Program-made: the position numbers and the translations under genes
In this document: positions 10,839-46,982 of the stretch, in pieces
Numbering within the stretch: position 1 is the stretch's first letter
Layout: each line of letters starts with the position of its first letter
Notes under the pieces: model-generated
Told to the model about the DNA's origin: nothing
Databases searched by the model: none
What the model saw: the letters and a program-made list of their open reading frames with translations, nothing else
DNA from: a candidate division WOR-3 bacterium
GTDB taxonomy: Bacteria; Hydrothermota; 32-111
Direction of reading: 5' to 3'
DNA: 64,000 bases
Assembly: GCA_037481815.1 (NCBI GenBank)
Contig: JBBFKX010000001.1
Span: 1,373-65,372, forward strand

Positions 10839-11636
10839 TCACTGTAAAATTTTTATATCATCAAATCTCTCGAGGATGATTTCATATCCATATTTGGTAT
10901 CATATTTTAAAAAACCTTCAACATAAACATTTTTGTTTTTGAAGTAGAGTATGTTCACATTTTTTTTAAAAAACTCTTTGCTTAGATTTTTAAAGATCAC
11001 TATCGTAAAGTTTTTATCACCTTTCAACTTTATAAAATAGGTATCACTTTTTTTCGATTTATATACATCCTCTACATACGCTTTTAATTTTACCCATTGG
11101 TTTTCGTACTTTTTATAATTTTTCGAGAGCAAGTTAAAGTTCAAAGTATCTGAGATTGAATCTATAGAAAATGAATTTTTTCTTATTATGAAAAACCTTT
11201 TTAAAACTTTTTCAAACATAAAAGTATCTGAAGCATTTATGAAGAAGAGATTTTTTGAATTTTTTTTGGGTTGTATAGGTTTGTTGCAAACTATAAAATT
11301 TTTTGATGAGTTGAAAACTATCGTGTAATCAAGAAGTGAATCATCAACAAAAAGTATCGTATCAACAAAGATTGAAAGAGAATCTTTGAGAGAGTAATTT
11401 TTTGTGATTGAACTTTTTGAAAGTATTACAATTTTTTTTATCTTCGTGTTTTCCTTTAAAATTTTTAAAAAAGTTTTATCTGTAAAATCTTTCGAAAGAA
11501 TCGTTATATCCACGGTGCTCGATTGTACCAGTTTTTGAAAAGAATCTTTGAAATCTTCGTAATCAAAGCCGATTTGATTTGAAAATAAAAAATTTGAAAT
11601 TAAAAGTGAAAAGAGAAAAAGTTTTTTAATCATCTG
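10839..11636 (-). CDS. Hypothetical secreted protein (signal peptide).
   Basis: MIKKLFLFSLLISNFLFS signal peptide. No recognisable motifs. Start chosen at the internal Met that carries the signal peptide. Overlaps the glcD-like 3' end by 11 nt. Confidence 0.45.
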   Translation of the reverse strand, partial: QMIKKLFLFSLLISNFLFSNQIGFDYEDFKDSFQKLVQSSTVDITILSKDFTDKTFLKILKENTKIKKIVILSKSSITKNYSLKDSLSIFVDTILFVDDSLLDYTIVFNSSKNFIVCNKPIQPKKNSKNLFFINASDTFMFEKVLKRFFIIRKNSFSIDSISDTLNFNLLSKNYKKYENQWVKLKAYVEDVYKSKKSDTYFIKLKGDKNFTIVIFKNLSKEFFKKNVNILYFKNKNVYVEGFLKYDTKYGYEIILERFDDIKILQ

Positions 11637-13020
11637 GGAATATTTTCCCCGGGTTAAAAAGGTTTTCAGGATCAAAAAGTTTTTTTATGTTCTTTTGAAT
11701 TTTTATTTCCTGATCGGTGAAAACTAATTTCATAAATTTCTTTTTATAGATACCTATTCCATGCTCTCCGGATAATTTACCACCTAGTTTAACAGAAAGT
11801 TCCATTATCTCTTTTAACACATTCTCAATGTTATTGTCAAAATTTTTATCTTTTTCATCAAGTTTTAAAATGTTTATATGAACATTACCATCACCTGCAT
11901 GACCGAAGGTGATAATCGGTATTCTGTATTTGTCTTCTATCTTATGGATATTTTTTATAAGATCTGGAAGTGAGTTTACTGGAACGACAACATCCTCTCT
12001 TTCCCTTTTGACAGACATCATCACCATCGCGTCATGTAAAGATCTTCTCGCTTTCCAGATTTTTTCCTGAAAATTCTTATCCTCAGCAACGAGTATATCA
12101 ACACACTTTAAATTCGATGAAATTGCATCTATGGTTTCTATATTTCTGTTGACCAGATCTTTTTCAAACCCATCGATTCTCAAAAGGATCTGGGCTTCAC
12201 CTTTCTGTGATGCCATCTGGTTCCCAAGAAAATTTTTTGCCGCTTCGAGTGCTTTTTTTTCCATAAATTCTATCGATGATGGTAATATCCCCGAATGTAT
12301 TATTTTCACAACCGCATTTGTTGCATCATCTATCTTTTCAAAAGCGAGTAAAAGATCAATACTGTATTTTGGTAAAGGTAGAAGGGATAGTGTTATTTCC
12401 GTTATAAACCCAAGTGTTCCTTCTGAACCGATGAAAATATCTTTTAGGTTGTATCCTGTGGCGTTTTTTCTAACCTTCCCACCAAATTTTAAAATTTCAC
12501 CTTCAGGTGTTATAACTTTTATACCTTTAACATAGTCCTTTGTAGTTCCATATTTTACAGCAGAAGGTCCACCTGAATTTTCTGCAACATTACCACCGAT
12601 CGAACAGGAATCGAGAGATGCAGGATCTGGTGGATAGAAAAGATCGAACTCTTCGACACGCCTTTTCAAATCACCTGTAATGATACCTGGTTGTGTTTTT
12701 ACTGTAAAATTTTCTTTGTCGATCTCGATTATCCTGTCTAAAAGTTCAGTTGAAATTATTATTGATGGAACAACAGGTATCGCTCCACCTGAAAGTCCGG
12801 TTCCTTTTCCTCTTGGTACAACAGGTATTTTTTCTTTATAAGAAAATTTTATTATTTCAACAACCTCTTCTTCGTTTTCTGGCAAACATGCAACTAACGG
12901 AACAGAAAATTTTCCCCCGGATTCATCTGTTGAATATTTTTCAAGTAACTGCTCATCGTATATTAATCTGTTTTCAGGTATTATTTTTTTTAACTCGTTA
13001 AAGATTAAGTTTCTTTCCAT
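11626..13020 (-). CDS. glcD: FAD-linked oxidase: glycolate oxidase subunit GlcD / D-lactate dehydrogenase family (FAD-binding PCMH domain).
   Basis: N-terminal FAD-binding motifs (VVPRGKGTGLSGGAIP), central GSEGTLGFITEITL, C-terminal HAGDGNVH motif typical of GlcD / FAD-dependent D-LDH. Confidence 0.75.
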   Translation of the reverse strand: MERNLIFNELKKIIPENRLIYDEQLLEKYSTDESGGKFSVPLVACLPENEEEVVEIIKFSYKEKIPVVPRGKGTGLSGGAIPVVPSIIISTELLDRIIEIDKENFTVKTQPGIITGDLKRRVEEFDLFYPPDPASLDSCSIGGNVAENSGGPSAVKYGTTKDYVKGIKVITPEGEILKFGGKVRKNATGYNLKDIFIGSEGTLGFITEITLSLLPLPKYSIDLLLAFEKIDDATNAVVKIIHSGILPSSIEFMEKKALEAAKNFLGNQMASQKGEAQILLRIDGFEKDLVNRNIETIDAISSNLKCVDILVAEDKNFQEKIWKARRSLHDAMVMMSVKREREDVVVPVNSLPDLIKNIHKIEDKYRIPIITFGHAGDGNVHINILKLDEKDKNFDNNIENVLKEIMELSVKLGGKLSGEHGIGIYKKKFMKLVFTDQEIKIQKNIKKLFDPENLFNPGKIFPDD

Positions 13021-13114: not shown

Positions 13115-16093
13115 ATGGACAGGGAGCAGATAGTTAAAAAATTTGTTCAATCTTATACATCCTACAAAAACAACATTGAAATATTCCATGATCTTTCAAC
13201 TTTCAAAGTCAAAGAGATTTTACTTGTTGCGACATTTTACGATGGTTTCATCCTTGAGGAAGAGGGAAGATTGGCTGAAAGAATTTTTGGGGAGTATCAT
13301 AAACTGTCCTTGCCTGATGCACCGAGAGTCACAAATGCGATAAACGGTGAAGAGGCATGTGAATGGCTGAAAAAAGAACATTTTGATATGGTTATTTTGA
13401 CTATGAGAATCGACGGAATGTCCCCCTATCAGTTGAAAGAAAAGATAAGAAGTGTGAACAGGGATATACCGATAGTTATACTTTTAAACGACAATGGAGA
13501 GATTCCATTGATCAAAGATCAACTCGAAAAGGATAAGGATAAGGATCTTGTTTTTGTATGGAATGGTGATTCAAAAGTTTTTCTTGCGATGATAAAATAT
13601 GTTGAGGACAAAAAGAATATCGAAAGAGATACTCTGATTGGAAATGTGAGAGTGATACTTCTTGTTGAAGATTCGATAAGATACATATCAAGGTACCTTC
13701 CGATACTTTACACTGAGATTCTGAAACAGACTCAGAGGTTGATAATACAGGAAAAACTTGATGATATGAAGAAACTACTCCGTTTGAGAGCAAGACCAAA
13801 AGTGATAATCGCAACGAATTATGAGGATGCGATTTTTTATTTTGAAAAATATCGAGAGAATCTTTTAACTGTGATTTCGGATATGAAATTCCCGAAAAAC
13901 AATGCGACGAACTACAATGCGGGTTATGAATTGATTAAGTTTATAAAAGAAACTATGCCGGAACTGCCCTGTCTTTTACAGTCATTTGAAAAAGAAAATC
14001 TAAAAAAAGCGAAAGAGTTAAAAGTCCCATTCATAAACAAAAACAGTGATAAATTGAGTCAGGAGTTGAGAAACTTTATTTTCAACAACCTTGGATTTGG
14101 TTCTTTCGTTTTTAAAGATAGAAAAGGAAAGGAGATAGTCAAAGCGAGTAACATTGAATCTTTCAGAAAAATTCTTTTGACGATCCCCTCAGAATCTTTA
14201 ATTTTCCATGCCAATTTAAACCAATTCTCAGCATGGCTGATGGCAAGAGGTGAAATCAAGATTGCAAAAAAACTACAAAAGTTAAAAGTTTCAGATTTTA
14301 AATCCATAGAGGACTTAAGAAAATATCTTATAGATATAACACTCGATATTGATAAGGAATCAATAAAGGGAAAAGTTGTAAAATATTCAGATAATCTAAA
14401 AAAAGATGAGGAAGTGATAGTTCAAATCGCTGATGGAACACTTGGTGGCAAGGGAAGAGGTATCGCTTTTGTAAACAATATTCTTCAGAACACTGATATC
14501 TTTAACTCTTTTGAAAATGTAAAAATAACCGTTCCTAAAACGATGCTTATAGGTTCTGAGGAGTTTTCGAACTTTATAGAAAAAAATAATCTTTCTTATT
14601 ACATTTTAAGGGAAAACGATTACAACAAATTACGAAAAAGATTTTTAAAAGGTAAACTTTCAAATGAACTTCTTTATAAGTTAAGGAAAAAACTTAAAAG
14701 TTTTACAAAACCCATTGCGATAAGATCTTCAAGTTTGTTTGAGGATTCAATCTCACAATCATTTTCTGGAGTTTTTGAAACCTATATGCTTCCGAACAAC
14801 GATGATGACTTTGAAAAAAGGATGAAGGATGTTGAGGATGCTATAAAACTTGTTTTTTCTTCCGTATTTTCACCATCAGCGAGGGCATATTTTAATGCGA
14901 TAAATTATAAGATCGAAGAGGAAAAGATGGCGGTGATAATACAGGAAGTTGTTGGACATAATTATGGAAAATACTATTATCCATCTTTTTCAGGTGTTAT
15001 GCAATCGGACAACTATTATCCGATTTCTCATCTTAAAAGGGAGGATGGAATATGTGAGATCGCTGTTGGGCTTGGAAAATATGTTATAGATGGAAACGAT
15101 TCTTTCAGGTTTTGTCCCAAATATCCTGAAATCGATATAAACATAAACAACAAAACACAAAAATTCTTTTATGCTATAAACCTTGGTGATAGAAAAAATT
15201 TTAATCTTATCGAAGGAGACAATTCGACTCTTGAACTTATAGATATAAATGTTGCAAGGGAGAATGGGAGTTTAAACTATATAGGATCTGTACTTGATGT
15301 GTTCAATGGAACTTTGACAGATGATCTTTCAGCAAAAGGTCCACTTGTGATAAACTTTAACTCAATAATTAAATATGAATATTTCCCTCTCTCAAAAATA
15401 TTAAACCAGGTGAGTGCGATTATAAAATTCGCTATTGGATCTCCATGCGAAATAGAGTTTGCTGTTGATCTGAACCCTGATGAAAACCACAGGATGACTT
15501 TTTATATCTTACAGATAAAACCTATAATCAGAAAGAACTCTGAAGTTGATGTTGACATTGAGAGTATCCCAAGAGAAAAAATCCTGTTCTTTTCCGATAA
15601 CGCTATGGGAAACGGCTTTATAGATAACATTAACGATATAATCCTTGTAAATCCAGAAAAGTTTGATAGGATGAAAAGTGTCGAACTTGTGCCCTTGATC
15701 GAGGAGATCAACAGAGATTTTGGGAAAAAGGGAAAGAAATATATTATTGTTGGACCGGGCAGATGGGGAACAAAGGATCCATTTTTAGGAATACCTGTTT
15801 TATGGTCTTCGATTTCAAATGTTAAAGTTATAGTAGAGATCGAGATGAAAGATATGTTGATAGAACCATCACTCGGCTCACACTTTTTTCATAATGTTGT
15901 AACGATGAATGTATTCTATTTAACGATTTTCAGCCATAAAAGATCGGATTCTTTTATCGATTGGGATCTTCTGTTTAAAGAAAAAAATATAAAAAAATTT
16001 AACGATATAATATTACACTTTGAATTTGAAAAACCTTTAAAAGTTTTGATTGATGGAAAGAGAGGAAAAGGCGCCATAATCAAAACCGATTAA
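13115..16093 (+). CDS. Multidomain protein: N-terminal receiver-like domains fused to a PEP-utilising / pyruvate-phosphate-dikinase N-terminal (ATP-grasp nucleotide-binding) domain.
   Basis: Receiver-like segments (ILLVEDSIRY...). A central region similar to the PEP synthase / PPDK N-terminal domain (IADGTLGGKGRGIAFVNNIL, IAIRSSSLFEDS, FSGVFETYM). RBS GGAGG upstream. Confidence 0.55.
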   Translation: MDREQIVKKFVQSYTSYKNNIEIFHDLSTFKVKEILLVATFYDGFILEEEGRLAERIFGEYHKLSLPDAPRVTNAINGEEACEWLKKEHFDMVILTMRIDGMSPYQLKEKIRSVNRDIPIVILLNDNGEIPLIKDQLEKDKDKDLVFVWNGDSKVFLAMIKYVEDKKNIERDTLIGNVRVILLVEDSIRYISRYLPILYTEILKQTQRLIIQEKLDDMKKLLRLRARPKVIIATNYEDAIFYFEKYRENLLTVISDMKFPKNNATNYNAGYELIKFIKETMPELPCLLQSFEKENLKKAKELKVPFINKNSDKLSQELRNFIFNNLGFGSFVFKDRKGKEIVKASNIESFRKILLTIPSESLIFHANLNQFSAWLMARGEIKIAKKLQKLKVSDFKSIEDLRKYLIDITLDIDKESIKGKVVKYSDNLKKDEEVIVQIADGTLGGKGRGIAFVNNILQNTDIFNSFENVKITVPKTMLIGSEEFSNFIEKNNLSYYILRENDYNKLRKRFLKGKLSNELLYKLRKKLKSFTKPIAIRSSSLFEDSISQSFSGVFETYMLPNNDDDFEKRMKDVEDAIKLVFSSVFSPSARAYFNAINYKIEEEKMAVIIQEVVGHNYGKYYYPSFSGVMQSDNYYPISHLKREDGICEIAVGLGKYVIDGNDSFRFCPKYPEIDININNKTQKFFYAINLGDRKNFNLIEGDNSTLELIDINVARENGSLNYIGSVLDVFNGTLTDDLSAKGPLVINFNSIIKYEYFPLSKILNQVSAIIKFAIGSPCEIEFAVDLNPDENHRMTFYILQIKPIIRKNSEVDVDIESIPREKILFFSDNAMGNGFIDNINDIILVNPEKFDRMKSVELVPLIEEINRDFGKKGKKYIIVGPGRWGTKDPFLGIPVLWSSISNVKVIVEIEMKDMLIEPSLGSHFFHNVVTMNVFYLTIFSHKRSDSFIDWDLLFKEKNIKKFNDIILHFEFEKPLKVLIDGKRGKGAIIKTD

Positions 16094-16148: not shown

Positions 16149-16976
16149 ATGTATCAGATATTGGAACATCAAAAAATTGGTCAAAATATCCACAAACTGG
16201 TGATAAAAGCCCCACTGATCGCAAGAGAAGCAAAACCCGGACAATTTGTTATCCTAAGGTCTTATGAAAATGGAGAGAGAATCCCCATAACTATATGTGA
16301 CAAGAATCCTGAAGTGGGGAGTATTACCCTGTTTATACAGGAGGTTGGAAAATCGACAGCAAAAATTGGAAGTTTCAAAGAGAATGATTATATTCTTGAT
16401 GTTGCAGGACCACTTGGAAAACCTGCACATATCGAAAAGGTTGGAACTGTTGTTACAATAGGTGGTGGTGTTGGTTGTGCTATAACTTATCCTGAAACGA
16501 AAGCCTACAAAGAAGCAGGAAACTATGTGATCGGAATAATGGGTTTTAGAAATGTATCGTTTAAAATACTTGAAGATGAGATGAAAAATATATGTGATGA
16601 ACTTTATATCACAACAGATGACGGTTCTTATGGACAGAAAGGTTTTGTATCGGATAAGTTGAAAGAACTGATAAAAGAGGGAAGAAAAATCGATGAAGTT
16701 CTGGTGATAGGTCCTGCGATCATGATGAAAGTTGTTTCAGATATCACAAAGGAGTATGGAATAAAAACGATAGCATCACTTAACTCGATCATGGTTGATG
16801 GAACTGGTATGTGTGGTGCGTGTAGAGTTGAGGTTGGTGGAAAGACAAAATTCGCGTGTGTCGATGGTCCGGAATTTGATGCTCATCAGGTTGATTTTTC
16901 GCTTTTGATGAAAAGATTATCGATGTATAAAGATGAAGAAAAACTCTCATACGAAAAATATATTAACGAGAGGTGA
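16149..16976 (+). CDS. nfnA: Ferredoxin-NADP+ oxidoreductase small subunit (NfnA/SudB/PyrK-like; FAD/NAD-binding with a C-terminal 2Fe-2S).
   Basis: PyrK-like fold with a C-terminal Cys cluster GTGMCGACRVEVGGKTKFACVDGPEF. AAGGAGG RBS. Confidence 0.7.
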   Translation: MYQILEHQKIGQNIHKLVIKAPLIAREAKPGQFVILRSYENGERIPITICDKNPEVGSITLFIQEVGKSTAKIGSFKENDYILDVAGPLGKPAHIEKVGTVVTIGGGVGCAITYPETKAYKEAGNYVIGIMGFRNVSFKILEDEMKNICDELYITTDDGSYGQKGFVSDKLKELIKEGRKIDEVLVIGPAIMMKVVSDITKEYGIKTIASLNSIMVDGTGMCGACRVEVGGKTKFACVDGPEFDAHQVDFSLLMKRLSMYKDEEKLSYEKYINER

Positions 16977-20085
<3,109 letters not shown>

Positions 20086-20089
<4 letters not shown>

Positions 20090-21441
20090 TGGAAGAGAAA
20101 AAATATAAGATTCTTATTGTTGATGATGTTAAGGATAGTATTGAACTTGTGAGCAGGAATCTTCAACAGGCAGGTTATATAACTTTTACAGCAACTTCGC
20201 CTATAAAGGGATCCGAGATCTTAAAAAACAACGATATAGATCTTGTGATCACAGATCTAAGAATGCCTGATATAGATGGAATTGCTTTTACAAGATACAT
20301 AAAAGAGAATTATAAAAATATTGAAATCATCATGATCACAGGTTACCCATCTATAGAAAGTGCTGTTGATGCTGTAAAAACCGGTGTCAGCGAGTTTTTA
20401 CCAAAACCTTTCACGGATGATGAACTGTTTGCAACCGTTGAAAAAGTCCTTTTTAAACTCAAAATCAAAAATGTGTTAAACAAAGAGGATAAAACTAATC
20501 TACCTGTTTATCATGGAATTCTAGGTAACAGTGATAAAATGAAAAAAGTTTTTGAACTTATCAATAAAGCGTCGCAGACTTCGGCAACGGTTTTGATAAC
20601 AGGAGAGAGTGGAACAGGAAAAGAGATGGTCGCAAGAGCGATACACTATTCATCACCAAGAGCGAGTCAGAGTTTTGTTCCCGTTAACTGTGGAGGTATA
20701 CCTGAAGAACTGCTCGAAAGTGAACTTTTTGGATATGTTAAAGGATCTTTTACAGGTGCAAACGAAACAAGAGCAGGGTTTTTTCAGACAGCGGATGGTG
20801 GAACAATATTCCTTGATGAAATCGGAGAAACGAGTTTGTCGATGCAGGTGAAACTTTTAAGAGTTCTACAGGACAAAACCGTTTATATGATCGGATCAAG
20901 AAAACCACAAAAAATAGATGTGAGAGTTATCTGTGCCACGAACAAGAATCTTGAAGAACTTGTTAAAAAAGGGGTTTTCAGAGAGGATCTTTACTTCAGG
21001 TTAAATGTGATCAACATTGAAATACCTCCGTTAAGAGAAAGAAGAGAGGATATCCCATTGCTTCTTGAGCATTTTGCAACAAAATACAGCAAAGAACTTG
21101 GAAAGGAAAAACCGACTTTTACAGAAAATGCTATTAGAAGTTTAAGTGAATATTTCTGGCCAGGTAATGTCAGAGAACTTGAGAATGTTGTTCAGAGATT
21201 GATAATAATGAAAGAGGATAACATTATAGATGTGCCAGATCTTCCATCGTTGATGAGATTCAATTTACCATATAAAACAGACCTTACAAGAAAACTTTCA
21301 GAAGTTGAATGCGAATACATTAGAGATGTTTATGAGAGTCAGGGAAAGAACAAAACAAAAACGAGCGAAATTCTTGGAATAGATCGAAAAACATTGAGAG
21401 AAAAGTTAAAAAAATGCCAGATTGATAATGAAGAAGAGTAA
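20086..21441 (+). CDS. Sigma-54-dependent response regulator (NtrC/AtoC family: receiver, AAA+ sigma-54 activator, Fis-type HTH).
   Basis: Receiver ILIVDDVKD...DLVITDLRMPDIDG. Walker A GESGTGKE. GAFTGA-type motif GSFTGA. ESELFGY. C-terminal HTH TSEILGIDRKTLREKLKK. Confidence 0.9.
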
Positions 21442-21546
21442 AATCTCCCCATTGAGGAGAAAATCCCCGTTTATTTTCAGGTAAAATTATCTTTCTCTAA
21501 AGAATAAGATCCCTTTAAAAAATAACTTATATATTTTTTTGATTTC

Positions 21547-21561
21547 TGGCATACTTATTGC
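21547..21561 (+). promoter_or_regulatory. Sigma-54 (RpoN) -24/-12 promoter: TGGCAT-N5-TTGCT.
   Basis: cTGGCATacttaTTGCTtt matches the TGGCAC-N5-TTGCW consensus. Located 33 nt upstream of the ATG at 21594 and 106 nt downstream of the NtrC-like gene. A direct repeat GAGtAAAATCtCCCC / GAGaAAAATCCCCG at 21436-21469 may be the upstream activator site. Confidence 0.7.
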
Positions 21562-21593
21562 TTTATTAGTTGGTAAAAAGAAAAGGAGGTCTT

Positions 21594-21908
21594 ATGATGA
21601 CGATAAAAGAAAGAATCGAAAAAAAGAAGGAAACAGGTTTAAAGAATTTTGAAGGACTCTGTGTAACATGTAAAAATAGCAAAACATGTATCTTTCTTCA
21701 GAATTCAACAAAATCAATCATCAGTTGCGAGGAGTTTGAAAATATTGAGACAGTGGAAAAAACAAAAGATGATTTAAAAGAAAATCTTGTTTCGAAAGTT
21801 AAAGGATACGATCTAAAAATAGGTCTTTGTGCAAACTGTGAAAACAAAATCGATTGCAAATTTGAAAAACCTGAAAGTGGTGTCTGGCATTGTGAAGAAT
21901 ACAGATGA
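21594..21908 (+). CDS. Small cysteine-rich protein with an internal tandem duplication of a 4-Cys motif (putative zinc-ribbon-like protein).
   Basis: Two repeats, C-x2-C-x5-C-x11/12-C-EE(F/Y): CVTCKNSKTCIF...SCEEFE and CANCENKIDCKFEKPESGVWHCEEY. AAGGAGG RBS at 21581-21587. The track ORF starts at an upstream in-frame Met at 21570. Confidence 0.55.
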   Translation: MMTIKERIEKKKETGLKNFEGLCVTCKNSKTCIFLQNSTKSIISCEEFENIETVEKTKDDLKENLVSKVKGYDLKIGLCANCENKIDCKFEKPESGVWHCEEYR

Positions 21909-21914
21909 TGTTCT

Positions 21915-23144
21915 ATGGATATTTTAAACTATTCTTCTTACCTTGAAGATGATGATCTTTTAAGAGTAAAGGGATTCAGAGAATTCATCGATAAAACAAC
22001 TTTTGATAAGGATATGCGCGCTATCCTTATCAGACCATCAAAGGTCGTTAGAAACTCTGAACATATTTTAAATGAAAACCAAAAGTTAACCTTGAAATCA
22101 ATATTCATAAAGCATAACTTTTTAAATGACACCGATGTGACTTCACTTTTCTTTGAGAAAGAGGAAGATTTTGAAAATTTATTTTTGCAATCTTTTTACT
22201 CTTCTTTAAAGTATTCGTTTCTCGATATCCCTTTTGGTGGCTCTACACTCGGGTTAATTTTACATGAAAATTTAAATTTATATGATGAAAAGGTAAAGAG
22301 AAAGTTGGGATCACTTCTTGTAAAAAATTTTTCGGAGATACTTGATGAACAGAACTATTTAAAAATCAAGGACTATGAAGAAGAACGAAAGGATTCGATA
22401 GTAAAACTTATTGAAAATCTTGATAGACCAAGAATATCAAAAAGGTTGAAGTTCCTTTTGAAGAACCCTTTGAGAAAAAAAATAGTGAAAGAAAAATATG
22501 AACTTATATGGTTAAAAAGTTTGGTCAAATACTTTTTTAAAGGAAACAGGGTGAGGGTTATCATAGATACGATAAACAAAAGATCTCTTGAATTCTTAAA
22601 GGAGATGGTAAAAGATGAATTTTTTGTTGTTGTTGGAATAGGTTCAAAAGATTATTCCTATTATTCTTCAAAGGGTATTGACTGGAACGACATGAATATC
22701 ATCGAAAATATGGGAAACTCTCAAAACTCTATTGATTATACTGACCTGTTGAAAAAAGAAACTGAAATATTTTTAGAGTTTGGTTCAAATTATAATTTCA
22801 ATGAAACGATGTCCAAACTTGTCAACTGTCGTATTTTTGGTGAATTTGAAGATCTCTCAACATCTTTTCAGAGTATTAAAAATTTAACCAACAGAAAAAT
22901 AATCTATCTTCCATCATTACTTCTTGATTCTGTTGATCAGATTTTCGATTATTTTGAGATAATCGAAAGAAAAAGGGAAGAGATAATGAGTGTGGATGAA
23001 ATAGAATTAAGGTTTGAAACATATATCAAGTTTGTTCTGTCCTACTTTGATTCTTTTCTTGAAGACGAGCAAAAAGTGTTTGAAATCTTTTTGTCAAGAG
23101 CGTTTGAAAATTACAGAAGAAAGTTTTCTCTTGTTTACGGGTGA
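21915..23144 (+). CDS. Hypothetical protein, 409 aa; possible very divergent Glu/Leu/Phe/Val-dehydrogenase-like fold.
   Basis: No clear motifs. Weak resemblances to GDH: FLDIPFGGSTLGLIL vs [12 protein letters not shown], and FFVVVGIGSKDY vs VAISGFGNVAWG. Tightly linked to the next gene in the sigma-54 operon. Confidence 0.4.
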   Translation: MDILNYSSYLEDDDLLRVKGFREFIDKTTFDKDMRAILIRPSKVVRNSEHILNENQKLTLKSIFIKHNFLNDTDVTSLFFEKEEDFENLFLQSFYSSLKYSFLDIPFGGSTLGLILHENLNLYDEKVKRKLGSLLVKNFSEILDEQNYLKIKDYEEERKDSIVKLIENLDRPRISKRLKFLLKNPLRKKIVKEKYELIWLKSLVKYFFKGNRVRVIIDTINKRSLEFLKEMVKDEFFVVVGIGSKDYSYYSSKGIDWNDMNIIENMGNSQNSIDYTDLLKKETEIFLEFGSNYNFNETMSKLVNCRIFGEFEDLSTSFQSIKNLTNRKIIYLPSLLLDSVDQIFDYFEIIERKREEIMSVDEIELRFETYIKFVLSYFDSFLEDEQKVFEIFLSRAFENYRRKFSLVYG

Positions 23145-23148
23145 AAAT

Positions 23149-24354
23149 ATGGTTGAAGAAAAAGTTCTAAAAGAAAAATCAAAAGATTTAAACATTCTTG
23201 AATCATTTTTAAATGATTTGAACGAAAAGGAAAAAGAACATTTATTGAATCTTCTAAATTATAAAGAAACATATGTGAACATACCTTTAAAAGGTGCAAA
23301 TGGTGATTTTAAAAATATAACAGGTGTTAAAGTGGATAATTTTTTGGTTTATAACGACACATTTTCTAATCTTAGAATTCATCCATATTTTGATATAGAT
23401 TACTTTAAACGGTTTTCACTCTTGAACACAATAATGTTCTCACTTTTTGAAATTCCAGTAAATGGAAGTTTCTCATCTATTCTTGTTGATCCTTTCGATT
23501 TATCGATCGAAGAGAAAGAAGAACTTTTTAAAATGTTTTCTTCTCTTTTAAAAAATGAAATTCCAGAAAAAAATTATTTTTTCTCTTCAGATCTAAACTC
23601 AAATTTGAACGATTTAAAAATTTTCTGTGAATCGTTTCATTATGAAGATAAGGATAGAAAAAGAATGATAAGTTTTGTTGACCAATACAGTGATATAAAA
23701 AAAGAGATAGATGTTGAAAGGATAAATGAAATTTCCACTTATTATTCGATAAAAAAATTCTGTGAAATCAAAAGAAAAAATTTTGATGAACTATCTGTTG
23801 TTGTTTATGGATTTGGAGAAAAGCCCTGCTATCTTTCAAAAATGTTAAGAAAGGAAGGTTTTAACATCGTTGGAATTTTGACACATCAGGGTTCTTTCTA
23901 TGATCCTTACGGAATTGAAATCGATGAATTTTATAAAAATTATCTTTCAAGTTCCCCGGACAAAAATGAAACAAGATACAAAAAAATAGATCTTTATACA
24001 TTTGAAAACATCAGATCGGATATCACCATTTTCTATATAGATCTTTTTAAAAAGGATTTCTTAACTAATATAAACACATCCTTGGTAGTTGAAGGTCGAA
24101 GGATGATATTTACAGATGAAGATTTTCTGATGATGAAAAATAAAGGTGTTGAATGTTTGCCCTGTGAATTCACATGCTCTGGAGAGATACTCCTTTATGA
24201 TGAACTTAGGAAGAACAGGATTCCGAAAAAAGTTGAAACGATGATCCAGAAGGAGATCTATCATAAAATCGATCAGATCTTTGCCTTTGAAGGTGAAGAT
24301 GTTAAATCAAAGATTATTAAAATTGCTTTAAGAAATATTCTTGAAAATTTTTAA
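23149..24354 (+). CDS. Degenerate glutamate-dehydrogenase-like protein, 401 aa (ELFV-dehydrogenase N and C domain signatures present but lysine-containing active-site motifs substituted).
   Basis: GVKVDNFLVYNDTFSNLRIHPY aligns to [24 protein letters not shown] with the K lost. IPVNGSFSSILVDPFDL aligns to [16 protein letters not shown] with the K lost. VVVYGFGEKPCYLSKMLRKEGFNIVGILTHQGSFYDPYGIEIDEF aligns to VAISGFGNVAWGAAIKANELGAKVVTLSGPDGYIYDPDGV (Rossmann). Start at MVEEK (GTGAAAAT ATG); the upstream in-frame extension from 23014 overlaps the previous gene and was rejected. Confidence 0.55.
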   Translation: MVEEKVLKEKSKDLNILESFLNDLNEKEKEHLLNLLNYKETYVNIPLKGANGDFKNITGVKVDNFLVYNDTFSNLRIHPYFDIDYFKRFSLLNTIMFSLFEIPVNGSFSSILVDPFDLSIEEKEELFKMFSSLLKNEIPEKNYFFSSDLNSNLNDLKIFCESFHYEDKDRKRMISFVDQYSDIKKEIDVERINEISTYYSIKKFCEIKRKNFDELSVVVYGFGEKPCYLSKMLRKEGFNIVGILTHQGSFYDPYGIEIDEFYKNYLSSSPDKNETRYKKIDLYTFENIRSDITIFYIDLFKKDFLTNINTSLVVEGRRMIFTDEDFLMMKNKGVECLPCEFTCSGEILLYDELRKNRIPKKVETMIQKEIYHKIDQIFAFEGEDVKSKIIKIALRNILENF

Positions 24355-24378
24355 GAAACGCTCATATACCTCAAAAAA

Positions 24379-24432: not shown

Positions 24433-25850
<1,418 letters not shown>

Positions 25851-25938: not shown

Positions 25939-27279
25939 ATGAATAGTTATGTTGCACAGGTAATAGAAGAAGTAAAACAGAGATACTTCTGGGAAAAAGA
26001 GTTTATTCAGGCGGTTACAGAGGTTTTAGAGTCCCTATCACTTGTTATGGATAAAGAACCGAAATACAAAAAGTACAGGATTCTTGAAAGAATCGTAGAA
26101 CCGGAAAGAATAATATTCTTCAGAGTTCCATGGACGGATGATAAGGGAGAGATCCATATCAACAGAGGTTACAGGGTTGAGTTCAACTCAGCACTTGGTC
26201 CTTACAAAGGAGGACTGAGATTCCATTCTTCTGTAACACTTTCAATTCTAAAGTTTTTGGGATTTGAGCAGATTTTCAAAAACTCCTTGACAGGTCTTCC
26301 AATGGGTGGTGGTAAAGGTGGAAGCGATTTTGATCTCAAAGGAAAATCTGAAGGTGAAGTTATGAGGTTCTGTCAGTCATTTATGACCGAACTTTATAGA
26401 CACATCGGTGCTGATACTGATGTCCCGGCAGGAGACATTGGAGTAGGTGCAAGAGAGATTGGATACATGTTTGGACAATACAAAAGATTGAAAAATGAGT
26501 TCACAGGTGTTTTGACAGGTAAGGGCTTAAACTGGGGTGGTTCTTTGATAAGACCTGAAGCAACAGGATTTGGTGTTGTCTATTTTGCAGAAGAGATGTT
26601 GAAAACGAAAAAGGATTCACTTGAAGGAAAGACTGTTGCGATCAGTGGTTTTGGTAATGTTGCCTGGGGTGCTGCAATAAAAGCGAATGAACTGGGTGCA
26701 AAGGTTGTGACTCTCTCAGGTCCTGATGGATACATCTATGATCCGGATGGAGTGAAAGGCGAAAAGATAGATTATATGCTTGAGATGAGAGCAAGTGGAA
26801 GGGATTGTGTGAAAGATTATGCTGATAAATTCAAAGTGAAATTTGTTGAAAACAGAAGACCATGGGAAGTTAAAGTTGATGTCGCACTTCCTTGCGCAAC
26901 CCAGAATGAGATCGATGGAAACGATGCGAAAACATTGATAAAGAACGGATGCAAATGTGTTGTTGAAGGTTCAAATATGTCCTCAACACCTGAAGCAGTT
27001 GAAGCATTCCTTAACAACAATATCCTTTACTCTCCAGGCAAAGCATCTAACGCAGGTGGAGTTGCAACAAGTGGTCTTGAGATGTCACAGAATTCGATGA
27101 GATTACAGTGGCCAAGAGAAGAAGTTGATAAGAGGTTAAGAGAGATAATGGTAAAAATACATCAGTCATGCGTTGATGCAGCAAAAGAGTATGGAACACC
27201 TGGAAACTATGTGAACGGAGCGAATATCGCAGGATTTAAGAAGGTCGCAGATGCTATGATCGATCAGGGTGTTGTATAA
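25939..27279 (+). CDS. gdhA: NADP/NAD-specific glutamate dehydrogenase (copy 2).
   Basis: [49 protein letters not shown]. Confidence 0.9.
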   Translation: MNSYVAQVIEEVKQRYFWEKEFIQAVTEVLESLSLVMDKEPKYKKYRILERIVEPERIIFFRVPWTDDKGEIHINRGYRVEFNSALGPYKGGLRFHSSVTLSILKFLGFEQIFKNSLTGLPMGGGKGGSDFDLKGKSEGEVMRFCQSFMTELYRHIGADTDVPAGDIGVGAREIGYMFGQYKRLKNEFTGVLTGKGLNWGGSLIRPEATGFGVVYFAEEMLKTKKDSLEGKTVAISGFGNVAWGAAIKANELGAKVVTLSGPDGYIYDPDGVKGEKIDYMLEMRASGRDCVKDYADKFKVKFVENRRPWEVKVDVALPCATQNEIDGNDAKTLIKNGCKCVVEGSNMSSTPEAVEAFLNNNILYSPGKASNAGGVATSGLEMSQNSMRLQWPREEVDKRLREIMVKIHQSCVDAAKEYGTPGNYVNGANIAGFKKVADAMIDQGVV

Positions 27280-42574: not shown

Positions 42575-45271
42575 ATGAAATTAACTTTTGAGTCAAATTT
42601 AGATTTTCAATTAAAGGCAGTCAATTCTACAGTGAATCTTTTTGAGGGACAACAAAGGGGTGCCGGTACTGTTAAGTTTACCTTTAATAAAAATGATCCT
42701 GAAGAATTATTTTCGGGAATAAATAGTATTGGTAATCGTCTTGCAATCTCAAATGAACAAATTTATAAAAATCTTTCCGAAATACAGAAAAATAATGAAA
42801 TAAGTGTTGTCACAGAAGAAGAATTTAAAGATAATGGATTGAATTTTACCGTAGAAATGGAAACCGGTACGGGTAAAACTTATGTGTACCTTCGAACTAT
42901 TTACGAACTTAATAAAAAATATGGCTTTAAAAAATTCGTCATCGTCGTACCTTCTATTGCTATCCGGGAAGGAGTTTTGAAAAACCTTGAAATTACCTTT
43001 GAACATTTTCAAAATCTTTACGATAATGTGCCCGTAAATTATTATGTTTATGATAGCAGTAAAGTTTCTTCTTTGCGTTCTTTTGCAACCAATAACAGCA
43101 TTGAGATTCTGGTAATCAATATTGATTCCTTTGCTAAAGATGAAAATATCATCAATCGTCCGAATGATAGATTAAGCGGTCTGGAACCTATAAAATTTAT
43201 TCAAGCCACAAATCCCATTGTGATAGTGGATGAGCCGCAAAATATGGAGACTGAAAAAAGAAAAAATGCGATTAACAGTTTAAATCCACTATGCACGCTT
43301 CGTTATTCAGCAACTCATAAGAATTTGTACAACCTTGTCTATAGCCTAAATCCAGTAAAAGCATATGATCTTGGTCTTGTAAAACAAATTGAAGTGGACT
43401 CCGTAGTGGAAGAAAATGCGCATAATGATGCTTACATTGCCGTTGAAGAAATCAAATCTCAGAAAACAAAAATAACAGCACGGCTATCTATCTATTCAAG
43501 CGTACCCAATGGAATTATAAAAAAAAGCATTACCGTAAAAGTGGGTGATGACCTTTTTCAATTGTCCGGGAATTATCAACCATACAAAGATAGATTCATA
43601 GTTGAAGAAATAGATGTAGCCAATCAAACCATTACCTTTTCCAATGGTATCACTTTGAATAGCGGCTCATCACGCGGCGGAATGGCCGATGAAATTATGC
43701 ATTTTCAGATACAACGAACCATAGAAGAACATCTCAAAAAAGAACTAAAATTATACAAACAAGGCATCAAAATACTTTCACTATTTTTTATTGATCGTGT
43801 TGCCAGTTATCGCTACTACGATGAACAGGGAAATCCACAAAAAGGAAAAATTGCACAATGGTTTGAGGAGGAATATAGAAATAGTATAAATAGAAATGAA
43901 TTTTTAGAACTAAAAAAACTTTTTCATCCTGATGATAAAATAGACATAGAAAAAATCCATAACGGCTATTTTTCGCAAGACAAAAAAGGAAGACTCAAGG
44001 ATACTCGCGGAGAAAGTGAAGACGACCTTAATACCTATGATTTAATAATGAAAGATAAAGAAAAATTGCTAGATATACAAACACCATTACGTTTTATTTT
44101 TTCTCATTCTGCTTTGCGTGAGGGCTGGGACAACCCGAATGTATTTCAGATCTGTACACTAAACGAAACAAAATCAGAACTCAAAAAACGGCAGGAAATT
44201 GGTAGAGGACTCAGACTTGCAGTCAATCAAAACGGACAAAGGATTTATGATAAAAACATCAATCGATTGACAGTAATTGCCAATGAATCGTATGAATCTT
44301 TTGCCAAACAATTACAAACCGAGATTGAAGAAGAGTGTGGTGTAAGCTTTAAAGGTAGAATCAAAAACAAACGCGAACGAATTGCCATCAAATACCGCAA
44401 AGGTTTTGAAGTCGATCCAAAATTCCTTGAAATATGGGAAAAAATTAAATATAAAACTCGATACAGAGTGGAATATCAAACCACAGAATTAATAAATAAT
44501 GCTGCTGAAGAGATTCAATTTTTGCCACCGACTCCGTCTCCATCGATCAAAGCCACAAAAGTAAAAATGGATATTACCGACGAAGGTATCGATACATCGT
44601 TAGTGGGCGAAAGACGGGAAAAATATGGAAATAAACATTTATGGCTATTACCTGATATGATTGAATATATTCAGCAAAAAACAGAACTGACAAGAAATAC
44701 TATCAAAGAAATTCTTGATAAAGCCAATCGCTGGAACAATTTTTTTGTCAATCCACAATATTTTTCTGATCAATGTGTGTCTGTTATCAAAAGAACACTT
44801 GCAGAATTTTTAGTAGATGGCATCAAGTACGAAAAAATTAGCGGACAATACTATGAAATGCGTCTTTTTGAAATGCAAGAACTGGAAACCTATCTGGATA
44901 CTTTTACCTTCCAAGTGAACAACAAAGAAAAAACCATTTATGAAGAATATATTCCTCTGGACTCAAGCGTAGAAAGTCAATTTGCAAAAGATTGCGAAAC
45001 AAGTGAAAATGTGGAGTTCTATTTCAAACTTCCCGGTTGGTTCAAAATTCCAACACCGATTGGTTATTACAACCCCGACTGGGCAGTAGTTTTGAAAAAC
45101 GAAAAGAAAATCTACTTTGTAGCCGAAACCAAAGACACAGGTGGCGATAAAATCGATATCTCAAAACTTCATCCCGATGAACAGATGAAAATCAAATGTG
45201 GCGAAAAACATTATAAAGTGTTTAATGGTGTGGAATATAAAGTAGTGAAAAGGGTGAGTGATTTGATATGA
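42575..45271 (+). CDS. res: Type III restriction enzyme Res subunit (SF2 helicase plus C-terminal PD-(D/E)xK nuclease).
   Basis: Helicase motif I METGTGKTY, motif II VIVDEPQNM, motif VI QEIGRGLR. C-terminal nuclease core YNPDWAVV...YFVAETK. 898 aa. Confidence 0.8.
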   Translation: MKLTFESNLDFQLKAVNSTVNLFEGQQRGAGTVKFTFNKNDPEELFSGINSIGNRLAISNEQIYKNLSEIQKNNEISVVTEEEFKDNGLNFTVEMETGTGKTYVYLRTIYELNKKYGFKKFVIVVPSIAIREGVLKNLEITFEHFQNLYDNVPVNYYVYDSSKVSSLRSFATNNSIEILVINIDSFAKDENIINRPNDRLSGLEPIKFIQATNPIVIVDEPQNMETEKRKNAINSLNPLCTLRYSATHKNLYNLVYSLNPVKAYDLGLVKQIEVDSVVEENAHNDAYIAVEEIKSQKTKITARLSIYSSVPNGIIKKSITVKVGDDLFQLSGNYQPYKDRFIVEEIDVANQTITFSNGITLNSGSSRGGMADEIMHFQIQRTIEEHLKKELKLYKQGIKILSLFFIDRVASYRYYDEQGNPQKGKIAQWFEEEYRNSINRNEFLELKKLFHPDDKIDIEKIHNGYFSQDKKGRLKDTRGESEDDLNTYDLIMKDKEKLLDIQTPLRFIFSHSALREGWDNPNVFQICTLNETKSELKKRQEIGRGLRLAVNQNGQRIYDKNINRLTVIANESYESFAKQLQTEIEEECGVSFKGRIKNKRERIAIKYRKGFEVDPKFLEIWEKIKYKTRYRVEYQTTELINNAAEEIQFLPPTPSPSIKATKVKMDITDEGIDTSLVGERREKYGNKHLWLLPDMIEYIQQKTELTRNTIKEILDKANRWNNFFVNPQYFSDQCVSVIKRTLAEFLVDGIKYEKISGQYYEMRLFEMQELETYLDTFTFQVNNKEKTIYEEYIPLDSSVESQFAKDCETSENVEFYFKLPGWFKIPTPIGYYNPDWAVVLKNEKKIYFVAETKDTGGDKIDISKLHPDEQMKIKCGEKHYKVFNGVEYKVVKRVSDLI

Positions 45272-45918
45272 ATAGCCAATTAGAAGATATAAAATTATAC
45301 AGAATGACTCACATAGAAAACATACCACATATTTTACAACATGGTATTGCGCATAAAAATTCAAAGTTTGCTAATGCAGAATATAAAAATATTGGGGACT
45401 TTTCATTGATATCAGCGCGTGAAAGAAAAACAATAAATATTACAAATGGTAATAATAATATCATAAAGACAATAATCTTAGGAGATTTCATCCCTTTTTA
45501 TTTCAATGTAAAAATGCCCATGCTTTATGTTATCCAGCATGGAGGCAACTTTACCACAAAAACTTCATCATCGGACATAGTTTACCTGGTATGTTCCCTT
45601 TATAAAATAGTTCAATTAGATAATATTGAATGCTACTTTTGTGATGGGCATGCCACTGATAACTTAACAACTTTTTATGATAGTAGTTTTATTAAGCAAA
45701 TAGGAAATATTATTGATTGGACGGCAGTCACATCTCAATACTGGGGCGGTGAAAATAATTTAGAGGTAAAAAGAAAAAAACAGGCTGAATTTTTAGTAAA
45801 GGGAGATTTACCTGTTGAAGTAATTGAATATTTTATTTGCTATGATGAGATAGCAGAGGAAAAACTAAAAAAATTTGGTGTTAAATCAATCAGGATAGAT
45901 AAAAATGCCTATTATTGA
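45268..45918 (+). CDS. darT: DarT (DUF4433) ssDNA thymidine ADP-ribosyltransferase toxin.
   Basis: LYRMTHIENIPHILQHGI, PFYFNVKMPMLYVIQHGG, CDGHA, and the catalytic-glutamate motif KQAEFLV closely match the characterised DarT family (e.g. Thermus aquaticus DarT). ATGA overlap with the res stop. Confidence 0.85.
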   Translation: MNSQLEDIKLYRMTHIENIPHILQHGIAHKNSKFANAEYKNIGDFSLISARERKTINITNGNNNIIKTIILGDFIPFYFNVKMPMLYVIQHGGNFTTKTSSSDIVYLVCSLYKIVQLDNIECYFCDGHATDNLTTFYDSSFIKQIGNIIDWTAVTSQYWGGENNLEVKRKKQAEFLVKGDLPVEVIEYFICYDEIAEEKLKKFGVKSIRIDKNAYY

Positions 45919-45929
45919 GGAGGTTGATT

Positions 45930-46982
45930 ATGATAAAATTCACAACAGGAAATATTCTTGAAAGCGAGGCACAGGCTCTGGTTAATACTGTTAACACCGT
46001 TGGAGTTATGGGAAAAGGCATTGCTTTGCAATTCAAAAAATCCTTCCCGGATAATTTTAATGCCTATGCAAAAGCCTGCAAAAGTAAGGAAATTGAAATT
46101 GGTAAAATGTTTGTATTCAAAGAAAATACCCTTTCGGGCGAAAAAATCATTATCAACTTCCCCACCAAAAAAGATTGGCGAAAACCCTCTGAATACGAAT
46201 ATATTGAAAAAGGACTGGACGACCTGATTCGTGTTATCAAAGAATATAATATCAAAAGTATTGCTATCCCCCCTTTAGGCGCTGGAAGTGGCGGACTCTT
46301 GTGGGAAAAGGTAAAAACTATTATTCAAAATAAATTAGGCAGTTTAGATATAGATATTTTCGTTTATGAACCCTCAAGAGAAATACAGGAAAAACTAAAA
46401 AAAGAAAGAGTAAAACTAACAGATGCAAGGGCTTTGATGCTGTATGTGCTTTATGAACTGGTACGACAGGGCGAATATGTATCCGAATTCTCTGCTGAAA
46501 AAGTTTGTTATTTCCTTCAAAAATTTGGTGCGGAGGAATATTTCAAACTAACATATAAACCCAACTTTTATGGTCCTTATTCCGGGAAGGTTAGATATGT
46601 GCTTAACTATTTAAATGGTAGTTACATCATGGGATATAGCGATATAACTAAAAAACCTTTTGAACCCCTTTTACTTATAGCCGATCGATACGATGAAGTG
46701 AACCGATACATACAATCCAATAAAAAATTACAAAATATTGCTCAAAAAACCATACAATTTCTTGATGGTTTTTTTTCCGATTTTGCACTTGAACTATTGT
46801 CCACAGTTGACTGGATAATGAAAGAAAAACAAACAGATAATTTTGATGTAATTAAACAAGAAATCACAAACTGGAACTACAAAAAACGAAGTAAATTCTC
46901 TAATGACAAATACATTCAAATAGCCATTGAACATATAAAAAATTTTCATAAAAGGATAACCCTATGGACGGACAAAACTTAG
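45930..46982 (+). CDS. darG: DarG macrodomain antitoxin (N-terminal macro domain plus C-terminal DarT-binding domain).
   Basis: MIKFTTGNILESEAQALVNTVNTVGVMGKGIALQFKK...INFPTKKDWRKPS...IAIPPLGAGSGGL is a canonical DarG macrodomain. GAGGAGG RBS. Starts 11 nt after the darT stop. Confidence 0.85.
   Translation: MIKFTTGNILESEAQALVNTVNTVGVMGKGIALQFKKSFPDNFNAYAKACKSKEIEIGKMFVFKENTLSGEKIIINFPTKKDWRKPSEYEYIEKGLDDLIRVIKEYNIKSIAIPPLGAGSGGLLWEKVKTIIQNKLGSLDIDIFVYEPSREIQEKLKKERVKLTDARALMLYVLYELVRQGEYVSEFSAEKVCYFLQKFGAEEYFKLTYKPNFYGPYSGKVRYVLNYLNGSYIMGYSDITKKPFEPLLLIADRYDEVNRYIQSNKKLQNIAQKTIQFLDGFFSDFALELLSTVDWIMKEKQTDNFDVIKQEITNWNYKKRSKFSNDKYIQIAIEHIKNFHKRITLWTDKT

Follow-up and report, generated by a model that had tools for sequence, protein, structure and literature searches.

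A putative sigma-54-dependent operon of glutamate dehydrogenase-like proteins in a candidate division WOR-3 bacterium points to a widely conserved regulatory module at the glutamate node

Introduction

What does a two-component system of the NtrC type control if the operon next to it encodes three proteins without clear annotation, and is such an arrangement confined to a single organism? This question is raised by a stretch of 64,000 nucleotides from a candidate division WOR-3 bacterium (contig JBBFKX010000001.1; the whole stretch is called the window in the following), in which the genes for a sensor kinase and a sigma-54 activator are followed directly by a promoter-like element and three open reading frames (ORFs), ORF1, ORF2 and ORF3. 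An earlier note on this DNA had taken the locus for a sigma-54-controlled operon with a link to nitrogen or redox metabolism; this link is upheld here, and the comparative data make it much stronger. Our analysis makes it probable that the locus represents, in WOR-3, a regulatory module of the glutamate node that is conserved widely and apparently has not been described, including the mechanism and the roles of the three proteins proposed below. The features on which this reading is built are the following (strand in brackets).

18371-20089 (+): sensor histidine kinase, with Pfam domains HisKA and HATPase_c
20086-21441 (+): sigma-54 enhancer-binding response regulator, with Pfam domains Response_reg (1e-26), Sigma54_activat (2e-72), AAA_lid_14 and HTH_8 (2.5e-9)
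21436-21452 (+): activator site unit 1, GAGTAAAATCTCCCCAT, 20.8 bits with the position weight matrix (PWM) for the site, best in the window
21454-21470 (+): activator site unit 2, GAGGAGAAAATCCCCGT, 15.4 bits with the same PWM
21522-21529 (+): conserved block ATAACTTA in the AT-rich spacer between activator sites and promoter
21547-21562 (+): sigma-54-type -24/-12 promoter TGGCATACTTATTGCT
21594-24354 (+): operon ORF1-ORF2-ORF3, with intergenic gaps of 6 and 4 nt
21594-21908 (+): ORF1, 104 amino acids (aa), unannotated eight-cysteine family
21915-23144 (+): ORF2, 409 aa, glutamate dehydrogenase (GDH) fold by profile and predicted structure
23149-24354 (+): ORF3, 401 aa, Pfam ELFV_dehydrog_N (1.4e-9) and ELFV_dehydrog (2.3e-5), above the gathering score
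24375-24408 (both strands): candidate terminator hairpin, -20.6 kcal/mol, z = -4.65

Results

A conserved -24/-12 element in front of ORF1

The element at 21547-21562 follows the full sigma-54 consensus with all scored positions matched. TGGCAT (21547-21552) and TTGCT (21558-21562) are separated by five nucleotides, and the distance from the GG (21548-9) to the GC (21560-1) is the canonical 10 nt; the element is present as the earlier note had claimed, except that it ends at 21562 rather than 21561. On both strands of the window together there is a single match to the consensus TGGCAY-N5-TTGCW, with 0.05 matches expected, and at least one match was obtained in 4 of 100 shuffles. Patterns with one mismatch are not enriched in the window (12 found, 6.2 expected). 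The statistic for this single window is therefore moderate, and it is conservation that carries the weight. A second exact match, to TGGCA-N6-TTGC, at 19621-19636 on the minus strand was discarded: it lies antisense within the kinase gene and is probably due to chance.

The region between the activator gene and ORF1 was aligned for eight WOR-3 lineages, in which ORF3 identity ranges from 100% down to 44% and synteny is retained throughout. TGGCA, TTG, the ribosome-binding site (AAGGAGG at 21583-89, followed by the ORF1 start codon ATG at 21594) and the cores of both activator site units are invariant, and the AT-rich DNA between them is variable. This conservation, together with that across phyla described below, supports the sigma-54 promoter reading. 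Transcription would start near 21572-21574, and the operon is expected to depend on sigma-54 in vivo. At three related loci (L008, 8287-8475; L013, 8283-8475; L021) TTGT is found for TTGC at -12 with TGGCA kept; the promoter could be weaker or of a variant type there, or the change could simply be tolerated.

Two palindromic units upstream of the promoter

The putative activator sites are two 17-nt units placed 18 bp apart. Since each unit is an imperfect palindrome, they are two tandem dimer-type sites and not a plain direct repeat; the repeats and their reading as an activator site had been seen correctly before, whereas the description as a direct repeat does not fit, and their extent is 21436-21470. 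Unit 1 overlaps the TAA stop codon of the activator gene (21439-41). In two lineages this stop codon is shifted into the second unit and the repeats are still conserved, thus the constraint acts on the DNA. The family consensus of the site, GGGGAAAATCTCCCC, is an imperfect palindrome GGGGA-N5-TCCCC that occurs as a pair just downstream of the activator gene in the cross-phylum loci, and the repeats in the window are an AT-shifted form of it.

In the 21-kb loci of the clade the pair at 21436-21470 represents the sole strong activator sites, and we infer that the activator binds there. The block ATAACTTA, found as conserved columns in the eight-lineage alignment, may be a candidate bending or IHF-like element.

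A lone, near-perfect palindrome of the activator site type, GGGAATATTTTCCCCGG, was found at 11636-11652 (18.5 bits on the plus and 16.1 bits on the minus strand). It lies at the junction of an ORF at 10839-11675 (-) and a gene for an FAD-linked oxidase at 11626-13020 (-), with no sigma-54 site nearby, and may be a chance occurrence or a second target.

A two-component system of the NtrC type with a new kinase domain

The Pfam domains bear out that a kinase and a sigma-54 activator are encoded directly upstream of the operon, and that both form a cognate NtrC-type two-component system is upheld by these domains as well as by their co-occurrence across phyla. The activator consists of receiver (REC), AAA+ and Fis-type helix-turn-helix (HTH) domains. 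Its translation contains the sigma-54-contact loop as GSFTGA with the F and T residues kept; among the activator orthologues the loop reads GAFTGA in 48 and GSFTGA in nine. The GSFTGA form is also present in the Desulfovibrio vulgaris activator DVU3220, which has an assigned sigma-54 regulon (PMC4641369). The ratio of nonsynonymous to synonymous substitution rates (dN/dS) of the activator is 0.015-0.026.

In the kinase Pfam detected no membrane or periplasmic sensor domain. The protein is built from an N-terminal region, an unannotated domain of ~140 aa (residues ~205-345; 18983-19405), HisKA and HATPase_c. The unannotated domain with its motif RERVKELxCLY is common to all 38 orthologous kinases of the module, and L217, E219, R220, K222, E223, C226, L227 and Y228 are invariant in their alignment. 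A GAF domain is present in 15 of the 38, and the short kinases from Planctomycetota contain the unannotated domain and the kinase core with no other sensor domain. No match to this domain was found in Pfam, NCBIfam or the PDB, where its profile gave matches to designed repeat proteins only, which are spurious. Both proteins score below the respective equivalog cutoffs, the activator for NtrC (TIGR01818, 414.2 versus 558.6) and the kinase for NtrB (NR-II; PRK11073, 119.2 versus 240).

The arrangement recurs in many phyla

The C-terminal peptide of ORF1 was scanned against one genome per GTDB species, which yielded 409 relatives from many phyla; the best 80 non-redundant loci of these form the comparative set. 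In 52 of the 80 loci, the 400 nt upstream of the ORF1 homologue contain a -24/-12 site with a score of 6 or more out of 7. The density of such sites is 1.67 per kb in the upstream regions and 0.021 per kb in the remaining DNA of these loci, a difference of about 80-fold. Where enough upstream DNA was available (66 loci), the activator gene is among the three genes preceding ORF1 in 55, and in 46 the kinase gene is found there too. Two activator site units occur in 61 of 77 loci, and their spacing is 18-19 bp in 59 of these 61 although the search did not impose it. Pairs of units were counted 60 times in 34.5 kb of upstream DNA versus 50 times in 1.84 Mb elsewhere, this background including reverse-strand echoes. 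In 42 loci the pair is placed 99-199 nt upstream of the sigma-54 site. The phyla concerned include WOR-3, Planctomycetota, Verrucomicrobiota, Spirochaetota, Desulfobacterota, Zixibacteria, Ignavibacteria and others.

Two sets of genes follow the ORF1 homologues. GDH genes are located downstream in 19 loci, and 36 loci contain an operon for NuoE-like, NuoF-like (often fused to a GltD-like domain), 2Fe-2S/4Fe-4S and Glu_synthase FMN-domain proteins; both sets occur together in two loci. Single ORF1-led operons with a GDH gene and NuoE/NuoF-GltD glutamate-synthase-like genes were observed in L039 (3544-10335) and L043 (7806-10705). In L095, genes for NfnA-like and NfnB-like proteins stand directly after ORF1, which ties Nfn-type genes to the regulon as does the synteny in the window. 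A literature search retrieved no description of the ORF1 family, of the kinase domain with the RERVKELxCLY motif or of the paired site.

These data also bear on whether sigma-54 is involved here at all. The operon might instead be reached by read-through from the nfnAB-kinase-activator operon upstream or from a sigma-70 start, with the repeats acting as an RNA hairpin or terminator-like element. A sigma-70-like match, TTGGTA-17-TATGAT, is located at 21570-21598, a short hairpin, called by the terminator scan on the minus strand, can fold from the repeats, and rpoN is not among the ORFs scanned in the window. Yet sigma-70-like matches are no commoner than in shuffles (14 found, 15.9 expected), and without sigma-54 it is difficult to account for the joint occurrence of activator, paired sites and -24/-12 element across phyla. 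A terminator or hairpin in the repeat region was rejected: the palindrome between the units is lost in the lineages L005 and L011 while the units themselves are conserved, and the plus strand contains no U-tract after the repeats. We therefore consider transcription without sigma-54 highly improbable and keep the sigma-54 promoter in what follows.

ORF1, a small protein with eight invariant cysteines

ORF1 contains two internal repeats of the form GLC-x2-C-x5-C-x(11-12)-CEE[FY] and ends with GVWHCEEYR. Its eight cysteines are invariant in the family alignments, together with the G-V-W-H-C-E-E-Y residues, and its dN/dS is 0.06-0.13. That ORF1 has no clear annotation was thus noted correctly: Pfam gave no match for the protein from the window and weak scattered matches only among 76 family members, the profile found no PDB match at E values up to 10, and the best NCBIfam match was the SPASM region with an E value of 0.004, far below its cutoff. 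ORF1 travels with kinase, activator and promoter whichever enzyme set follows, and for this reason a role in the regulatory module is favoured over that of an enzyme subunit. Most likely it is a metal-binding partner of this module, with Fe-S or Zn as candidate ligands.

ORF2 and ORF3 have the fold of glutamate dehydrogenase and lack its catalytic residues

The second part of the earlier assumption, that ORF2 and ORF3 are without annotation too, did not hold, as both are proteins with the GDH fold. In addition to its Pfam domains, the family profile of ORF3 matches GDH structures of the Bacillus subtilis GudB/RocG type in the PDB (1.6e-17). ORF2 has no Pfam match; its profile matches the GDH structure 3k8z at 6.7e-7, and aligned with the ORF3 family by hhalign it reaches a probability of 93.5%. 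ORF2 is clearly related to ORF3 by these comparisons and appears as its more diverged paralogue. The AlphaFold2 model of ORF2 (predicted local distance difference test score, pLDDT, 80; predicted template modelling score, pTM, 0.82) retrieved GDH structures with Foldseek at ~1e-23 to 1e-20 and template modelling (TM) scores of 0.66-0.81, the Thermus hetero-hexamer included.

The catalytic residues of the Clostridium symbiosum enzyme were mapped onto both proteins, placed via the window's own intact gdhA. In ORF3, K89, K113 and K125 are replaced by F, M and F, S380 is lost in a gap and D165 is kept; the GGxKGG position reads VNGSFSS, and the nucleotide loop is GFGEKP with Pro at the third position. 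In ORF2, K125 is replaced by Thr (FGGSTLG), K89 by V, S380 by D and D165 by K or N, the K113 position is K, and TINKRS stands in place of the GxGxxG nucleotide-binding loop. The replacement of the catalytic lysine is conserved across the ORF2 family and across the ORF3 family. These losses mean that neither ORF2 nor ORF3 is a conventional GDH, and on the residue mapping both are predicted to be catalytically dead.

The two proteins could still be enzymes if the amino acid dehydrogenase fold had been neofunctionalised with new catalytic residues and ORF1 served as Fe-S electron carrier, which would make them a new redox enzyme. This would agree with the purifying selection described below and with strongly conserved family motifs such as IVGI-TH-GSFYDPYGI and RYKKID in ORF3, in which the equivalent of D165 and some of the Rossmann loop (GFGEKP) are retained as well. 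Spacing of the type Cx2Cx5C...C occurs in some [4Fe-4S] sites, and the ORF1 repeats resemble these; the weak SPASM-region match is the only hit in favour of this likeness. In other phyla ORF1 precedes Fe-S-rich operons of the NuoEF type. However, ORF3 is without all three active-site lysines and S380, ORF2 is without K89, K125, D165 and the entire GxGxxG loop, and some ORF1 homologues stand in front of genes for ordinary NAD(P)-dependent GDHs, for which an Fe-S partner is not needed. A new enzyme is thus unlikely, and we continue with ORF2 and ORF3 as non-catalytic proteins.

ORF2 and ORF3 are under purifying selection, with dN/dS values of 0.08-0.14 and 0.06-0.25, respectively, for the window versus lineages down to 58% identity. 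For the neighbouring gdhA and activator genes the values are 0.004-0.03. Among the sequenced lineages, with identities as low as 43-44%, seven have ORF2 and eight have ORF3 as full-length frames. Only 11 clusters of ORF3 were found among 5.8e9 proteins, and the homologues of ORF3 carry the name candidate division WOR-3; ORF2 has eight clusters. A profile search of 1.84e9 representatives gave two matches below 1e-30; the one further relative is also without the lysine, and the rest are ordinary GDHs. The extreme rarity of the family, and dN values ~2-11 times those of the neighbouring gdhA and activator genes, might suggest that a former GDH pair became superfluous next to the adjacent gdhA genes and is now decaying as ORF2 and ORF3, so that the operon would matter only for ORF1. 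Such decay is scarcely credible in view of the full-length frames kept in distant lineages, of dN/dS values far below neutrality and of the many invariant columns in both alignments.

Where tandem GDH pairs are linked to ORF1 in other phyla, the first gene has all catalytic residues in every pair. In the second gene the lysine K125 is replaced by A, M, S or N, the binding residues are usually kept and GxGxxG-type loops always. An inactive together with an active paralogue of the same subfamily was found in nine other ORF1-linked pairs (L025-L027, L048, L057, L060, L069, L070, L072, L094), whereas in the clade of the window both paralogues are inactive and the adjacent active GDHs are from another subfamily. 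In a neighbour-joining tree, ORF2 and ORF3 fall within the ~420-aa ORF1-linked GDH class, apart from the 446-457-aa proteins of the adjacent gdhA genes. The simplest history would be that the clade inherited a GDH pair of which both copies then lost catalysis, the adjacent gdhA genes supplying the activity.

The end of the operon and the neighbouring genes

The strong terminator that had been proposed for the end of the operon is indeed a strong hairpin, conserved across lineages with compensatory changes, but it is shared with the convergent gdhA gene and weaker on the plus strand. There the tail is UUUU only, whereas a full U-tract follows on the minus strand, for which the terminator scan calls it as terminator of gdhA; the hairpin is therefore read as a bidirectional terminator for ORF3 (+) and gdhA (-). 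A block between the ORF3 stop codon and the hairpin (CTCATATACCTCAAAAAA, 24361-24378) is invariant in seven of seven lineages and more conserved than the hairpin itself. It is in part the U-tract of the convergent gdhA terminator, which leaves its GAGGTATATGAG portion (minus strand) unexplained. No known RNA family was found in the region with Rfam.

The genes flanking the module are:

16149-16976 (+): nfnA-like gene, Pfam DHODB_Fe-S_bind
16980-18380 (+): nfnB/GltD-like gene, Pfam Fer4_20 and Pyr_redox_2
24433-25806 (-): gdhA copy 1, catalytically intact
25939-27279 (+): gdhA copy 2, catalytically intact

Pfam domains and residue mapping confirm that genes for NfnA-like and NfnB/GltD-like proteins and two full-length GDH genes are neighbours of the operon, as stated previously. 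Both gdhA products (446-457 aa) have all five catalytic and substrate-binding residues and GGGKGG. The junctions between nfnA, nfnB, kinase and activator genes consist of a 3-nt gap followed by overlaps of 10 and 4 nt, so these four genes are probably expressed as one transcript. The order in related contigs is conserved as REC-PPDK_N, nfnA, nfnB, kinase, activator, ORF1, ORF2, ORF3, gdhA (-), gdhA (+) and HSP20. The adjacent gdhA genes or nfnA as targets of the same sites were rejected: no sigma-54 site scoring at least 6 and no activator-site pair is present there, and the nfnA coding sequence contains weak single activator-site matches only.

The REC-PPDK_N gene (13115-16093), located immediately upstream of nfnA in every related locus, encodes a 992-aa protein in which a receiver is combined with PPDK_N (ATP-grasp, PEP-utilising), an unusual output for a response regulator. 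Farther away in the window is a type III restriction-modification pair (42575-48829; res 42575-45271, DNA methylase 46964-48829). Nested between its two genes are those for a DarT ADP-ribosyltransferase (45268-45918) and a macro-domain DarG-like protein (45915-46982); all four genes overlap and form one operon.

Discussion

Taken together, the data support sigma-54 control of the NtrC type in which the cargo, a predicted pseudoenzyme pair, is unusual and a widespread, unannotated family of small proteins takes part. In the mechanism that we propose, the kinase, which has no recognisable membrane or periplasmic sensor domain, would sense a signal, its ~140-aa sensor domain being common to all orthologues, and would phosphorylate the NtrC-type activator. 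Dimers of the activator would bind to the two adjacent imperfect palindromes at 21436-21470, centred ~95 nt upstream of the -24 element, assemble and drive open-complex formation at the promoter 21547-21562. ORF1, ORF2 and ORF3 would then be transcribed as a single unit up to the shared hairpin. In other phyla the module would drive the expression of GDH, often as an intact enzyme with a lysine-less paralogue, or of a NuoEF-linked glutamate-synthase-like complex. In the WOR-3 clade, both dehydrogenase members would have lost catalysis and yet have been retained under purifying selection. By analogy to the inactive GdhA of Thermus thermophilus, ORF2 and ORF3 are most likely a non-catalytic hetero-oligomer with a function in ligand binding or in the regulation of another protein. 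Its targets would be the two intact GDHs encoded nearby or the signalling system.

Several observations weigh against this interpretation. The -12 dinucleotide is GC in six of the eight lineages and GT in two, the most distant ones (L008 and L013), and L021, whose ORF1 protein is identical to that of L008, also has GT. No rpoN gene or Sigma54 domain was found in the 64-kb window among those ORFs of 150 aa or more for which a scan was made or Pfam families are on record; a literature search on WOR-3 and sigma-54 returned no paper. The PWM for the activator site was trained on the regions that it scores, thus the enrichment of scores is circular, which is not the case for the spacing of 18-19 bp. 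Gene calls in the 80 loci are crude longest ORFs classified by BLAST against the proteins of the window. The AlphaFold2 model of ORF1, built from a 9-sequence alignment, is unusable (pLDDT 46), and the placement of ORF2 and ORF3 in the neighbour-joining tree rests on long branches. Finally, the two proteins and the products of the adjacent gdhA genes are from different GDH subfamilies, and this speaks against mixed hexamers between them.

One of the closest known relatives of this regulation is NtrB/NtrC (GlnL/GlnG) at sigma-54 promoters of nitrogen assimilation such as glnAp2. In both systems a two-component kinase is combined with a REC-AAA+-Fis-HTH activator, dimer sites occur as a pair ~100-200 bp upstream of a -24/-12 promoter and the targets are at the glutamate/ammonium node. 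However, the WOR-3 kinase and activator both remain below the equivalog cutoffs and the sensor is an unannotated domain, with or without GAF. Furthermore, the site is GGGGA-N5-TCCCC with units 18 bp apart, unlike the NtrC site TGCACC-N5-GGTGCA, and the first gene of the target operon always encodes the small eight-cysteine protein.

In both sequence and structure the nearest GDHs are B. subtilis RocG and GudB, to which the profiles of ORF2 and of ORF3 gave their best matches in the PDB (3k8z, 3k92, 7mfm). They are active enzymes, whereas ORF2 and ORF3 are 11-17% identical to solved GDHs and are without the catalytic residues. Transcription of rocG depends on SigL (sigma-54) via RocR, and the RocG protein has a second, moonlighting role in the regulation of GltC.

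A GDH paralogue without catalysis encoded beside a related GDH is known from the hetero-hexameric enzyme of T. thermophilus (GdhA regulatory, GdhB catalytic; PDB 3AOE), of which the regulatory subunit GdhA is catalytically inactive (PMC9570180; bioRxiv 10.1101/2025.10.31.685773). The model of ORF2 superposes on the chains of 3AOE with TM scores of 0.75-0.80, and the intact plus lysine-less pattern of the ORF1-linked pairs in other phyla resembles GdhB/GdhA. In contrast to Thermus, both paralogues are predicted to be dead here, ORF2 is in addition without the nucleotide loop and the intact GDHs nearby are of another subfamily.

Sigma-54-dependent transcription of GDH has also been described for Geobacter, where gdhA requires RpoN and GnfLM and is a binding target of the activator GnfM (PMC2995071). 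GnfM, a master regulator of nitrogen fixation, is not encoded beside its targets, unlike the activator described here. For Geobacter sulfurreducens, a predicted RpoN promoter has been described in front of GSU1235-1239; these genes encode two hypothetical proteins, a pyridine-nucleotide-disulphide oxidoreductase, an Fe-S protein and a gltB-related protein (PMC2725144). This gene order matches that of the NuoE/NuoF-GltD/Fe-S/Glu_synthase operons after ORF1 homologues, and GSU1235 would be a candidate homologue of ORF1.

A more far-reaching version of our reading is tentative. Kinase, activator, paired sites, sigma-54 promoter and ORF1 might together be an unrecognised cassette for the control of GDH and glutamate-synthase-like genes, in which ORF1 would be a co-sensor with Fe-S or Zn, or would serve the unannotated sensor domain of the kinase as feedback partner, similar to PII and NtrB. 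The WOR-3 cargo would then be a pseudoenzyme pair with the sole function of regulating the neighbouring GDH/Nfn module.

The regulation of the glutamate node, i.e. of GDH, glutamate synthase (GOGAT) and the NAD(P)H/ferredoxin balance, is largely unknown outside Proteobacteria and Firmicutes. What the locus provides is a cassette that is open to testing and is found again in hundreds of uncultured genomes; its elements are a defined DNA site and promoter type, a kinase family whose sensor domain is new, and an unannotated family of small cysteine-rich proteins. Its members form a graded series from a single intact GDH over an intact GDH with a lysine-less partner to the fully non-catalytic pair of this clade. 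This series suggests that hetero-oligomeric GDHs with a pseudoenzyme subunit, so far known from Thermus, are widespread, and the WOR-3 clade offers a natural case for what the GDH scaffold does after the loss of catalysis.

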